Assembly: GCA_000004985.1 (NCBI GenBank)
Contig: GG738858.1
Strand: one strand, 5' to 3'
Source of the DNA: Naegleria gruberi
Taxonomy: Eukaryota
Length of the DNA: 64,000 nucleotides
In this document: positions 32,078-57,266 of the stretch, one piece after another
Layout: every line of letters starts with the position of its first letter
Position numbering within the stretch: position 1 is the first letter of the stretch
Position numbers and translations under genes: made by a program
The notes under the pieces: generated by a model
Database searches by the model: none
What the model was told of the DNA's origin: nothing
The model's input: the letters and a program-made list of their open reading frames with translations, nothing else

Positions 32078-34195
32078 ATGGAAAAACACACAACACAACT
32101 TTCACAAAAAGAAGAAGAGGAAACAAATATGAACTTGTGGCAACAAGATGATCAATTTCCGAATGACATTATTTATGAAATTATGTCCTTTCTTGATGAT
32201 TTTACATTTGTTGTCATGAATTGTGCATTAGTATCCAAACAGTGGTTCAATGTTATTTTATTAACATGTAACCATCTTACTTTGAATGGTAAATATGGTG
32301 TTGAAATGGGTGGCCAATTTTTACAGAATATTGCAACTCTTAATGTTTGTGCCACAAGTGATACTTGCAAAAAATTAATCTTGATGAAATCATTAACTGA
32401 ACTAATTATTAGATGTGATGAACAAGACGCTAAATACATAGGTGGATTGAAACAATTAACGAGGCTTACTATTTATTCCAGTCATATTCGTGATATTGGT
32501 AAAATTAGTGAATTGAAACAATTGACCTATCTCAATGTTCCTGCGAATGGTATTTGGTGTTATACAACTAAACAGGTAAAAGAATTTAAACAATTGACCA
32601 CTCTTATTATTGATCAAAATCAAGTGGGTAGTGAAGGATGTAAATATATTAGTGAATTGAAACAATTGACCTCTCTTTCTATTGATGAAAATTTTATTTA
32701 TGATGAAGGAGTAGAGTATTTAAGTGAATTAGCACAATTAACATATCTTAATATTTCCAACAATGGGGTTGGTAGTGAAGGATGTAAATATGTAGGCAAA
32801 ATGAAACGATTGACCTCTCTTGGTTTTTATAACAATCGTATTGGTAAGGAAGGAGCTAAATACATTAGTACATTGAATCAATTGAAACAACTTGATATTT
32901 CTCGAACTAATATTGGTGATAAAGGACTTGAACATATTGGTCAATTATCACAATTGACAAGTCTTGATTTATATTGCAATAAGATTGGTAATGGAGGAGC
33001 TAAATATTTAAGTGAATTGAAACAATTAACCTATCTTAATATTTCTGAGAATCACATTGGCAATGAAGGAATTAAATATATTGGTGAATTGAAACAATTA
33101 GTCAATCTAATAATTAATAACAATAGGATTGGTAATGATGGAGTTAAATATATTGGAGAATTAAAACAATTAACCTATCTTAATATTTCTGAGAATCGCA
33201 TTGGCAATGAAGGAATTAAATATATTGGTGACTTAAAACAATTAACCAATATTATTATTTCTCGTAATTGGATTGGTAGTGAAGGAGCTAAATATATTGG
33301 TAAATTGTCACAATTGACAAGTCTTGGACTTTCTAGTAATAATATTGATAACGAAGGAGCTAAATATTTGAGTGAATTGAAAGAATTGAGCTTTCTTAAT
33401 ATTGAGAGAAATAAGATTCGTGATGAAGGAGCAAAATATATAAGTGAATTAAAGGAATTGATCTATCTTTATATCAGTAACAATAAGATTCGTAATGAAG
33501 GAGCTAAATACATAAGTGAATTGAAACAAGTAACTTACCTTGATATTGGCAACAATTATATTGGTGATGAAGGAATAAAATACATAAGTGAAATGAAACA
33601 ATTAACGGATCTTAAAAAATACCAATATAATGAAGAAGAGTACAATGAAATTGAAGAGGAGTATAATGAAGAAGATTACTATTACAATGAGGAGGAGGAG
33701 GAGTATAATGAAAATGAAGAAGAACATAATGAGAATGAGGAGGAGTACACTAACGAAGAAGAATATATTGAAAATGAGGAGGAGTACAATGAAAACGAAG
33801 AAGAATACACTGACAATGAAGAAGAACATAATGAGAATGAGGAGGAGTGCACTGACAATGAAGAAGAGCACAATGAGAAGGAGGAGGAGTACACTAACAA
33901 TGAAGATTACTATGACAATGAGGAGGAGTATACTGAAAATGAAGAAGAGCACTCTGAAAATGAAGAGGAGTACAATGACAATGAGTATTTGAAAATGAAG
34001 ATCACAACGAAAACGAAGAATTCACTGTCAATGAGGAGGTGGAGTATATGGAAAATGAAGGAGAATATATTGAAAATGAGGAGGAGTGCACTGACAATAA
34101 AGAAGTGCACAATGAAAATGAGGAGGAGTGAAATGAAAAAGACTGGAATTGTTTTTGTTAACCAATTAGATGAAGATATGAATCAGACATTGTAG
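32078..34195 (+). CDS. F-box-like / RNI-type leucine-rich-repeat protein with acidic EEEYNENEEE-repeat tail (paralogue A)
   Basis: The N-terminal F-box-like segment is FPNDIIYEIMSFLDDFTFVVMNCALVSKQWFNV. It is followed by about 18 copies of a 24-aa LRR (L..L.I..N.IG.EGAKYISELKQ). The C-terminus has a 27-nt-periodic acidic repeat. About 85% identical to the gene at 55421 at the N-terminus. Confidence 0.75.
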   Translation: MEKHTTQLSQKEEEETNMNLWQQDDQFPNDIIYEIMSFLDDFTFVVMNCALVSKQWFNVILLTCNHLTLNGKYGVEMGGQFLQNIATLNVCATSDTCKKLILMKSLTELIIRCDEQDAKYIGGLKQLTRLTIYSSHIRDIGKISELKQLTYLNVPANGIWCYTTKQVKEFKQLTTLIIDQNQVGSEGCKYISELKQLTSLSIDENFIYDEGVEYLSELAQLTYLNISNNGVGSEGCKYVGKMKRLTSLGFYNNRIGKEGAKYISTLNQLKQLDISRTNIGDKGLEHIGQLSQLTSLDLYCNKIGNGGAKYLSELKQLTYLNISENHIGNEGIKYIGELKQLVNLIINNNRIGNDGVKYIGELKQLTYLNISENRIGNEGIKYIGDLKQLTNIIISRNWIGSEGAKYIGKLSQLTSLGLSSNNIDNEGAKYLSELKELSFLNIERNKIRDEGAKYISELKELIYLYISNNKIRNEGAKYISELKQVTYLDIGNNYIGDEGIKYISEMKQLTDLKKYQYNEEEYNEIEEEYNEEDYYYNEEEEEYNENEEEHNENEEEYTNEEEYIENEEEYNENEEEYTDNEEEHNENEEECTDNEEEHNEKEEEYTNNEDYYDNEEEYTENEEEHSENEEEYNDNEYLKMKITTKTKNSLSMRRWSIWKMKENILKMRRSALTIKKCTMKMRRSEMKKTGIVFVNQLDEDMNQTL
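33600..34140 (+). repeat. tandem 27-nt (9-codon) acidic repeat tract (EEEY[NT][ED]NEEE) inside the tail of LRR paralogue A; contains an apparent 1-nt frameshift near 33975
   Basis: GAG/GAA-rich periodicity is visible in the sequence. All three plus frames and the antisense frames yield long low-complexity ORFs (E-rich, K/M/R-rich, S-rich and I/L/F-rich). Confidence 0.7.
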
Positions 34196-34483
34196 CCATA
34201 ACATATTTACAAATTTATCAAACTATAATTCTTATAATCTTTCCAATAACACTTTGTTCATTTCCTTGGATTACAGAATAATGTCAAGTAAGAAAGGTAT
34301 CAAGGCAATAATTGTCCAAGTTGATGTTTAAATCAAACAATAAAAGGTCAAAAATATTGAATATAGAATTTGTTAACCAACATTACAAAATTCCATATTA
34401 GAGTAAATACGAGTTCCAAGTTAATTACTAAAATTGTAAACAAGTTCATAAAATTTAAAAAAAAATTGAAAATCAAAAAAAAA

Positions 34484-55073: not shown

Positions 55074-55420
55074 TTTTTTTGATGTAAATTAAAAACTGAG
55101 AGAGAACTTGAAGTGAATAGGGAACTAGCTATTTGTCCAAGTATTAAGTATGAATTTAAATTGGTAACAGTGTTACAATTGTTGATTTTCCATTAATTTC
55201 CAAATTATAAGGCAATTTTTGTACAGATTTTATTTTCCTAACTTGGAATGATCCAAAATTTAATCTAACCATGGAGACTTCCGAATCAGAATGTATGATT
55301 GTAAACAACATTACATCTGTTATTTATGTTAGTCAACCTGATAATCAGCATTAAAAAAATGGGGCGAGATGAGGAGCATGAATCGTGCTATGGATCCACA
55401 ACCTGATCACATTAAAAAAA

Positions 55421-57266
55421 ATGGACAAACACACAACACGAACACAACTTTCACAAAAAGAAGAAGAAACAAATAATTATAAATTTCCGAATGACATTAT
55501 TTATGAAATTATGTCCTTCCTTGATGATTTTAAATTTATTGTCATGAATTGTGCATTAGTGTCCAAACAGTGGTTCAATGTTATTTTATCAACATGTAAT
55601 CATCTTAATTTAAATTGTAAACGTGGTGTTGAAATGGGTGGCCAGTTTTTACAGAATATTGCAATTCTTGATGTTTGTGCCACGAATGATACTTGCAAAA
55701 AATTAATCTCGATGAAATCATTAACTGAACTAATAATTAAATGTGATGATGAAGGATCAGCTAAATTCATAAGCGAATTGAAACAATTAACGAGGCTTAC
55801 TATTGATGCCAGTCATATTCGTGATGAGGGAGTTAGATATATTAGTGAATTGAAACAATTGGCCTACCTTAGTGTTCATAGCAATGATATTTCTGATGAT
55901 GGAGTTAAATATCTAAGAGAATTGAAACAATTGACCACTCTTATTATTTTTAGCAATCGTGTTGGTAGTGAAGGATGTAAATGTATTAGTGAATTGAAAC
56001 AATTGACCTCTCTTTGTATTGATGATAATCATATTAATGATGAAGGAGCAAAGTATTTAAGTGAATTAGCACAATTAACATATCTTGATATTTCAAGCAA
56101 TGGGCTTGGTAATGAAGGAACTAAATACATTAGCACATTGAATCAATTGGAAAAACTTAATATTTCCCAAAATTATATTGGTGATGAAGGACTCGAATAT
56201 TTTGGTAAATTGTCACAATTGACAAGTCTTGAACTTTCATAGCAATGATATTGCTGATGATGGAGTTAAATATCTAAGAGAATTGAAACAATTGACCACT
56301 CTTATTATTTTTAGCAATCGTGTTGGTAGTGAAGGATGTAAATGTATTAGTGAATTGAAACAATTGACCTCTCTTTGTATTGATGATAATCATATTAATG
56401 ATGAAGGAGCAAAGTATTTAAGTGAATTAGCACAATTAACATATCTTGATATTTCAAGCAATGGGCTTGGTAATGAAGGAACTAAATACATTAGCACATT
56501 GAATCAATTGGAAAAACTTAATATTTCCCAAAATTATATTGGTGATGAAGGACTCGAATATTTTGGTAAATTGTCACAATTGACAAGTCTTGAACTTTCT
56601 AACAATAAGATTGGTACTGAAGGAGCTAAATATTTAAGTGAATTGAAACAATTAACCCAACTTGATATTGAATATAATAAGATTGGTGATAAGGGGGCAA
56701 TGTATTTTGGAGAATTGAAACAATTGGTCAATCTAATAATTAATAACAATAGGATTGGTAATGATGGAGTTAAATATATTGGTGAATTAAAACAATTAAT
56801 CTATCTTGATATTTCTGAGAATCGCATTGGCAATGAAGGAATTAAATATATTGGTGAATTGAAACAATTAACCGATGTTAATATTTCTGAGAATCGCATT
56901 GGTAATGAAGGAGCTAAATATATTGGTCAATTATCACAATTGACAAGTCTTTATTTATCTAACAATAATATTGGTAATGAAGGAGCTAAATATATAAGTG
57001 AATTGAAGGAATTGATCTATCTTTATATGAATAACAATAAGATTCGTAATGAGGGAGCTAAATACATAAGTGAAATGAAACAAGTAACCCAACTTGATAT
57101 TGGCAACAATTATATTGGCGAAGAAGGAATAAAATACATAAGTGAAATGAAACAATTAATACATCTTGAAAAATACCAATATAATGAAGAAATGTACAAT
57201 GAAAATGAAGAGGAGTATAATGAAAATGAAGAAGAATACACTGACAATGAGGAGGAGGAGTACTAA
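55421..57266 (+). pseudogene. F-box-like / RNI-type LRR protein, paralogue B. The reading frame is broken by a 361-bp tandem duplication: it is truncated by TAG at 56240 and resumes in another frame. Either a recently disrupted gene or an assembly artefact
   Basis: The N-terminus MDKHTT..FPNDIIYEIMSFLDDFKFIVMNCALVSKQWFNV is about 85% identical to paralogue A. The track start at 55385 is GTG; the first ATG is at 55421. ORF 55385-56242 and ORF 56229-57266 encode the same 120-aa block twice, in frames that differ by +1. Confidence 0.5.
55877..56598 (+). repeat. near-perfect direct tandem duplication, 2 x 361 bp (copy 1 about 55877-56237, copy 2 about 56238-56598), covering five 24-aa LRR units
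   Basis: Two identical stretches begin catagcaatgatatt[t/g]ctgatgatggagttaaatatctaagag at 55877 and 56238. Only one difference was seen, T55892 versus G56253. 361 is not a multiple of 3. Confidence 0.8.

Follow-up and report, generated by a model that had tools for sequence, protein, structure and literature searches.

A young pair of paralogous F-box/leucine-rich repeat genes in Naegleria gruberi: predicted SCF adaptors with acidic repeat tails and frame lesions

A 64,000-nucleotide (nt) stretch of DNA from Naegleria gruberi (contig GG738858.1 of GenBank assembly GCA_000004985.1; hereafter, the window) contains two similar genes, both on the + strand and 23 kb apart, that encode an F-box-like domain, an array of leucine-rich repeats (LRRs) and a C-terminal acidic tail dominated by Glu, Asn and Tyr. 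Gene 1 (positions 32078-34195) is present as an open reading frame (ORF) of 705 amino acids that includes the F-box, about 17 LRRs, the acidic tail and a frameshifted C-terminus, as judged from the ORF list, the translation, Pfam matches and an AlphaFold2 (AF2) model; gene 2 (positions 55421-57266) is split into two reading frames. The probable explanation is that these genes are a young pair of paralogs from a large, Naegleria-specific F-box/LRR family, likely adaptors of SCF (Skp1-Cul1-Rbx1) ubiquitin ligases, with a tail made by replication slippage and with one of the two copies either broken or mis-assembled.

Paralogy and the extent of the duplicated segment

The two proteins were compared after gene 2 had been repaired by removal of one copy of the 361-base pair (bp) tandem duplication described below. 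The repaired gene 2 is collinear with gene 1, and the N-terminal residues 1-115 are 84% identical (91 of the 108 aligned positions), close to the figure of about 85% given in an earlier note on this DNA, which also placed the two loci, correctly, in the same orientation. The identity is 88% in the F-box and 76% in the LRR region, where the alignment contains two clean indels, each of exactly one 24-residue repeat; the junction between the LRRs and the tail is the same in both genes (...MKQL..L.KYQYNEE). These comparisons indicate that gene 1 and gene 2 are true, young paralogs, with a synonymous divergence (dS) of approximately 0.18.

The similarity extends beyond the coding regions. Local alignment and blastn delineate a 5' block, lying between about 200 and 80 nt ahead of the gene 1 ATG (31878-31995), that matches 55193-55305 upstream of gene 2 with 68% identity, with gaps (score 59, compared to a mean of 21.6 and a standard deviation of 2.9 for shuffled sequences, z ~13), and a 3' block that matches with 82.5% identity between 34225-34281 and 57273-57325 (score 62, shuffle mean 25.7, standard deviation 3.6, z ~10). 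An A-rich stretch at the ATG is also common to the two genes. Thus, the earlier claim that the sequence just upstream of each ATG is similar and that promoter-proximal DNA was included in the duplication is borne out, and the 3' flank can be added to it. Given this similarity outside the ORFs and the unrelated neighboring genes, the duplicated unit is gene-sized, about 2.4 kb, and carries its own flanks, approximately 200 bp on the 5' side and 60 bp on the 3' side. A larger segmental duplication or a transposon was considered and rejected, the neighbors being unrelated and the similarity stopping at these same distances upstream and downstream. In tblastn searches of the window with the N-terminus, the LRRs and the tail, no third copy was found, only the two loci; the further matches to the tail are generic acidic stretches.

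Two features of the flanks could be either promoter elements or traces of the duplication mechanism. The gene 1 block lies between the two copies of an imperfect direct repeat (31789-31848 and 34348-34401, ~60 bp, 76% identity), and the motif TGGAATG(A/T)(A/T)C(C)AAAAT(A/T)TAA occurs twice upstream of gene 1 (31781 and 31920) and once upstream of gene 2 (55243).

A divergent F-box followed by a GALA-like LRR solenoid

The predicted F-box spans amino acids 26-68 of gene 1 (32153-32281) and amino acids 22-60 of the first reading frame of gene 2. The Pfam profile PF00646 (F-box), which covers amino acids 26-60 of gene 1, just passes its cutoff of 20.5 bits in both genes (21.1 bits for gene 1 and 22.2 bits for gene 2), so that the N-termini do not fail the hidden Markov model check of the F-box proposed in the earlier note. 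When 35 family members were aligned, 13 of them matched the F-box-like profile and 8 the F-box profile (E <= 0.01). A 50-residue profile of the family F-box identifies the F-box of human FBXO42 in the Protein Data Bank (PDB) with E = 7.3e-5, followed by FBXL2, COI1 and Cdc4, each aligned at its own F-box; in total, F-boxes make up four of the six matches in the PDB. The AF2 model of gene 1 amino acids 1-530 (mean pLDDT 87) contains three short helices at the N-terminus (29-37, 42-49 and 54-63, pLDDT 62-76) followed by a regular solenoid; Foldseek matches of the isolated N-terminal model to FBXL-type receptors are not significant. The module is thus probably a divergent F-box, marginally supported by the profile searches. 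An interaction domain is present C-terminal to it, approximately 15-17 LRRs that begin about 40 residues after the F-box, and from this combination it is reasonable to predict that both genes encode SCF substrate adaptors.

The LRRs of gene 1 occupy amino acids ~106-512 (32393-33613). In agreement with the earlier note, the repeat unit is 24 residues long: Tandem Repeats Finder (TRF) reports a uniform period of 72 nt in both genes, and parsing of 28 units yields the consensus LKQLTxLxIsxNxIGnEGaKYIsE. The motif GxEGAKYISELKQLT, which the note had described as invariant, exists only as a consensus over these units and has no exact occurrence. The Pfam LRR_6 profile scores 156 bits with gene 1 and 72 and 175 bits with the first and second frames of gene 2, respectively. 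In the AF2 model of gene 1, the solenoid consists of regularly alternating strands and helices with pLDDT > 90. The top Foldseek match of this model is the GALA LRR domain of RipG4 from the PDB (E = 3.8e-17); the ribonuclease inhibitor (RI) aligns with a TM-score of ~0.6.

GALA-LRRs are 24-residue members of the CC-LRR subfamily that is typical of F-box proteins (Kajava and colleagues, PMC2244805); CC-LRR/GALA-like repeats are defined by a length of 24-26 residues, the motif N-x-(I/V)-(G/T)-D and small residues at positions 9-10 (PMC2244805). The window consensus conforms to this definition. The classical Cys residues of CC-LRRs at repeat positions 3 and 16 are absent, with Asn in the ladder position, a departure that likewise defines the GALA/GL-LRR variants (PMC2244805). 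Because of the 24-residue length and the N-x-I-G-x-x-G-A motif, the repeats are best classified as GALA-like CC-LRRs. They are not of the RI (RNI) type named in the earlier note, in which units of 28 and 29 residues take turns; the period here is uniformly 24.

The best-scoring LRR relatives from outside Naegleria are bacterial and metagenomic Roc-COR (ROCO) proteins with approximately 36-40% identity (including P0001-P0003 and P0008), and the top structural matches include LegL1 from Legionella along with RipG4 from Ralstonia; this 24-residue LRR type is therefore common to amoebae and bacteria associated with amoebae or plants.

A large family in Naegleria and its relationship to known systems

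An exhaustive search with a 115-position profile of the N-terminal module retrieves 395 cluster representatives with E <= 1e-3, 97 with E <= 1e-10 and 6 with E <= 1e-30, which shows that the family is strongly expanded, as the reading in the earlier note requires. Among the 10 representatives that were looked up, 8 come from N. gruberi or N. lovaniensis and 2 from environmental contigs; members from N. fowleri are also among the matches of the first protein search. The relatives of gene 1 in N. gruberi and N. fowleri share the pattern DDI.yEIlSFLd....C.LVSKQWfnVI, and gene 1 is 27-45% identical to 33 family members. The N-terminal module thus appears to define a large lineage-specific family whose named members all belong to Naegleria. 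A word-indexed search with the 139-residue N-terminus produced no match, a limit of the sensitivity of that tool given that the profile search found hundreds. In the literature library searched, no paper describing this Naegleria family was found.

Typical relatives are the N. gruberi proteins XP_002674264 (P0244), XP_002673301 (P0246), XP_002670683 (P0249) and XP_002670592 (P0259). As in the window genes, the N-terminal module (FsDDi.yEIlSFh.dDFkFIVMNCALVSKQW.NVI...GQFLQNI) leads directly into LRRs of 24 residues that bear the ...IG.EGAKYISEMKQLT... signature; these proteins differ in being only ~41-45% identical overall and 241-357 amino acids long, and in having no acidic tail. The same combination of an F-box with GALA-LRRs is present in the GALA/RipG type III effectors of Ralstonia solanacearum (PMC2244805). 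These are bacterial proteins secreted to hijack the SCF of a host, in contrast to the window genes, which belong to the nuclear genome of the amoeba itself; the identity is about 22%, and the effectors lack the Glu/Asn/Tyr tail. For Skp2, FBXL2, FBXL17, TIR1, COI1 and MAX2/D3, no orthology to the window genes was detected, and the Foldseek matches are not significant. The metazoan and plant FBXL receptors have ~26-residue or irregular repeats and proven Skp1 binding, in contrast to the strictly 24-residue repeats and predicted Skp1 binding of the window genes. The ribonuclease inhibitor resembles the window model in its horseshoe of LRRs with an alpha-helical convex side and in its match to Pfam LRR_6 but differs in the alternating 28/29-residue repeats and the lack of an F-box.

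Frame lesions in both genes

The earlier note treated 55421-57266 as one gene. As present, the frame that starts with the ATG at 55421 terminates at a TAG (56240-56242) created at a duplication junction, and a second frame occupies 56229-57266; according to the ORF list, the sequence and the Pfam matches, the first frame (55421-56242) encodes the F-box and about 6 LRRs, and the second one encodes the remaining LRRs and an acidic tail of 30 residues ending in ...DNEEEEY*. The gene is split by a 361-bp tandem duplication, with copy 1 (five LRR units plus 1 nt) at 55875-56235 and the frame-shifting copy 2 at 56236-56596; 363 of the 364 positions are identical at a lag of 361, and TRF identifies the same period. 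As 361 equals 5 x 72 + 1, the duplication added five LRRs and moved the reading frame by a single nucleotide. Removal of either copy produces an uninterrupted ORF of 494 amino acids. Rescue of the frame by an intron was judged unlikely: a scan of the sequence finds 214 formal GT...AG intervals that would restore the frame, but the sequence offers no AG|GT site for the precise excision of a single 361-nt copy, and the region in question is itself LRR coding sequence in register. Gene 2 was therefore either disrupted very recently by the 361-bp duplication, or the duplication is an assembly artefact.

In gene 1, the F-box/LRR body is intact and the end of the tail is frameshifted. A 1-nt deletion maps near 33988, where the sequence reads GAGTATTTGAAAAT as opposed to TATATTGAAAAT in other units, so that the ORF ends in 69 residues rich in Lys, Met and Arg that are the same acidic repeat DNA read out of frame. 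The acidic repeat continues in the -1 frame from the frameshift site (33986-34131): addition of one base near 33988 yields about 47 more acidic codons and a restored end, ...YIENEDHNENEEFTVNEEVEYMENEGEYIENEEECTDNKEVHNENEEE*, with the TGA at 34129-34131.

These lesions could be artefacts of sequencing or assembly, in which case the living amoeba would have two intact genes. The 361-bp repeat would then have arisen in assembly, where an LRR array was collapsed or expanded or two haplotypes were merged, and the A absent from gene 1 would reflect an error in base calling. In favor of this reading, LRR arrays are difficult to assemble, the 361-bp copies hardly differ from each other, and perfect ORFs return when one copy is removed or one base is added. 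However, a duplication with a single internal mismatch and a clean junction is what would be expected of a real recent event, the base deleted from gene 1 is outside any homopolymer run, and the repeat units are more degenerate after the frameshift than before it, which is consistent with some time spent out of frame. On balance, we consider an artefactual origin of both lesions unlikely.

Selection and the state of the two genes

Nei-Gojobori estimates for the pair, with a bootstrap interval, give a dS of 0.18 and a ratio of nonsynonymous to synonymous substitution rates (dN/dS) of 0.73 (0.52-1.03). The ratio varies along the protein, with 0.35 for the F-box, 0.48 for the C-terminal LRRs and 1.25 for LRR residues 116-300. 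In simulations, about 92 neutral substitutions per lineage left the ORF stop-free in only ~0.1% of the trials; the coding capacity was therefore kept until recently. The amino acid differences between the two proteins cluster at the solvent-exposed beta-strand positions 5, 6, 8, 10 and 11 of the repeat, on the concave face of the solenoid (30 of 65 compared to 42 of 247; Fisher p = 4e-6). This clustering fits divergence of the ligand-binding face; the same positions are the least structurally constrained, so that it is not proof of positive selection.

Several observations weigh against the favored explanation. The scores for the F-box are marginal in both genes, and PF12937 (F-box-like) remains under its cutoff of 24.3 bits, with 18.5 bits for gene 1 and 21.7 bits for gene 2. 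The overall dN/dS is high, its upper bound exceeds 1, and so does the value for LRR residues 116-300; relaxed constraint on one or both copies is possible. The products of gene 1 and gene 2 were themselves not found among 5.8 billion cluster representatives or ~15 billion proteins. Look-ups of the exact products of gene 1, the first frame of gene 2 and several neighbors gave a record for only one neighbor, on a metagenome contig of 1 kb, and neither locus is supported by a public gene model or expression evidence, so that both are apparently unannotated. Finally, with respect to the tail (see below), its retention in both copies with the same Glu/Asn/Tyr composition and the preserved junction KYQYNEE could reflect function and not just common descent.

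Taken further, the dN/dS values and the lack of a matching protein in the public collections searched, together with the presence of a frame lesion in each gene, would agree with both loci being pseudogenes in decay: in an over-expanded family, these copies would be surplus and would have ceased to be expressed or needed. We regard this as improbable. Lesions aside, both frames are free of stop codons over approximately 1.4-1.5 kb, the rare outcome in the neutral simulation; dN/dS in the F-box is low; a single mismatch in 364 nt marks the lesion of gene 2 as very young; and that of gene 1 is confined to the tail. A loss of function, if there was one, must therefore have occurred recently, and gene 2 is the main candidate for it.

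The acidic Glu/Asn/Tyr tail

The presence of Glu/Tyr/Asn repeat tails in both genes, also reported in the earlier note, stands, and within the window the pattern is confined to these two genes. In gene 1, the in-frame tail (33614-33985) consists of 119 residues (50% Glu, 20% Asn and 13% Tyr, net charge -65) and is built of the heptad (Y/H/C)-x-(E/D/N)-N-E-E-E, which is encoded by a 21-nt repeat (17.2 copies according to TRF, with higher-order periods of 81-144 nt). The tail length differs about fivefold between the copies, from 30 residues in gene 2 to 119 in gene 1, or 167 if repaired. No Pfam model matches the tail, and none of the 142 other family representatives examined carries it. When metagenomes were scanned for the sequence that joins the LRRs and the tail (AAATACCAATATAATGAAGAA), all eight matches obtained were due to chance and lay in unrelated bacterial genes. 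One family representative, P0371 (482 amino acids), has an independent, unrelated, Asp-rich acidic tail (...DRSDDDDDCSDDQDDYSDDDHDHSDSSDD).

The simplest reading of these observations is that the tail is a low-complexity extension generated by slippage, weakly constrained and inherited by both copies; the weak constraint is suggested by the length variation, the tolerated frameshift, the lack of a Pfam match, the absence from relatives and the chance-only matches to the junction. The statement in the earlier note that such a tail is not a standard feature of FBXL proteins holds, but the tail behaves as an unstable coding minisatellite rather than as a conserved module.

Alternatively, the tail might be a functional polyanionic module, such as an arm that contacts a basic surface, an autoinhibitory pseudo-substrate on the LRRs, or a docking signal that is modified at Tyr or resembles the tubulin tail (EEY-COOH). 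There is a precedent in the acidic tail of the E2 enzyme Cdc34, which binds a basic canyon of Cul1. The identical junction and composition of the tails in the two paralogs, the restriction of the pattern to these genes in the window, the ...EEEEY* terminus of the repaired gene 2 and the existence of a family member with an acidic tail of independent origin are all compatible with such a role. Nevertheless, the fivefold difference in length, the tolerance of a frameshift that turned about 47 acidic codons of gene 1 into a basic Lys/Met/Arg tail, the absence of the tail from the 142 other representatives and its nature as a DNA-level tandem repeat without a Pfam match make such a role quite doubtful. 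A polyanionic docking arm is also less likely than the role of the family in pathogen surveillance considered below. We therefore retain the reading of the tail as a probable product of slippage.

Predicted mechanism and implications

Under the favored explanation, a segment of about 2.4 kb, made up of the gene and the DNA flanking it on either side, would have been copied to a site 23 kb away on the same N. gruberi chromosome. In the predicted proteins, the N-terminal three-helix F-box would dock on Skp1 of the SCF ubiquitin ligase, and the substrate would be bound by the concave face of the 24-residue GALA-like solenoid, the face on which the two copies appear to have mainly diverged. The Glu/Asn/Tyr tail would be disordered, slippage during replication of the 21-nt coding repeat having created it and changed its length; it would be under weak constraint and probably not essential for the adaptor function. 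Of this picture, the paralogy, the domain content, the size of the family, the two lesions and the repetitive nature of the tail are shown by the data, whereas docking on Skp1, recruitment of a substrate and a dispensable tail are inferred.

At a minimum, these genes add two apparently unannotated members, one of them broken, to a lineage-specific family that is already visible in the Naegleria protein sets, and flag a Glu/Asn/Tyr heptad tail as unusual. The pair also illustrates how such a family may grow and die, namely through a 2.4-kb duplication with flanks, indels of whole repeats and a tandem duplication of five repeats that kills the frame. The presence of the same 24-residue GALA-like LRR type in F-box effectors of amoeba-associated and plant-pathogenic bacteria bears on the origins of these effectors.

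It is conceivable, if rather unlikely, that the hundreds of F-box/GALA-like-LRR genes of Naegleria form a diversifying repertoire of intracellular SCF receptors that evolves by birth and death and tags proteins of intracellular bacteria or giant viruses for ubiquitination. A similar role has been proposed for the expanded F-box families of plants and nematodes. If this were the case, the pair would capture a gene-sized duplication with its promoter, the gain and loss of LRR cassettes, divergence of the concave face and the death of one copy, and a free-living amoeba would prove to possess a novel type of innate defence.

Genomic neighborhood

The window is nuclear DNA of N. gruberi, with a GC content of ~33% and densely packed ORFs on both strands. 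The neighbors of the two genes are eukaryotic genes that encode an adaptin, a protein with four RRMs, Dpy-30, a dual-specificity phosphatase, a CLC channel, pieces of a P-type ATPase and a DUF4116 repeat protein. For the METTL16-like ORF at 57780-58958, the best match is a partial predicted protein from N. gruberi with 100% identity; the next best ones are from N. lovaniensis (52%) and Willaertia (50%). A bacterial or giant-virus origin, which the GC content and the density of ORFs might suggest, was rejected in view of this identity and of the eukaryotic housekeeping genes nearby. The Cation_ATPase and Hydrolase domains of the P-type ATPase (49115-51892, + strand) are split across several successive ORFs, which suggests introns or frameshifts in this region.

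The DUF4116 ORF (51963-53636, - strand) contains four repeats of this domain (184.7 bits); in the N. gruberi protein P0006, the DUF4116 repeat is fused to a kinase and to LRRs of the type found in the window genes. An ORF of 190 amino acids (53779-54351, - strand) has no Pfam match; an identical copy is present on a 1046-bp metagenome contig from the European Nucleotide Archive (ERZ929261), so that an environmental data set contains N. gruberi-like DNA. An ORF of 1739 amino acids (19479-24698, - strand) with a C-terminal ankyrin array shows an F-box-like match at amino acids 529-562 (19.9 bits, compared to the cutoff of 24.3) and may encode another, unrelated F-box adaptor.

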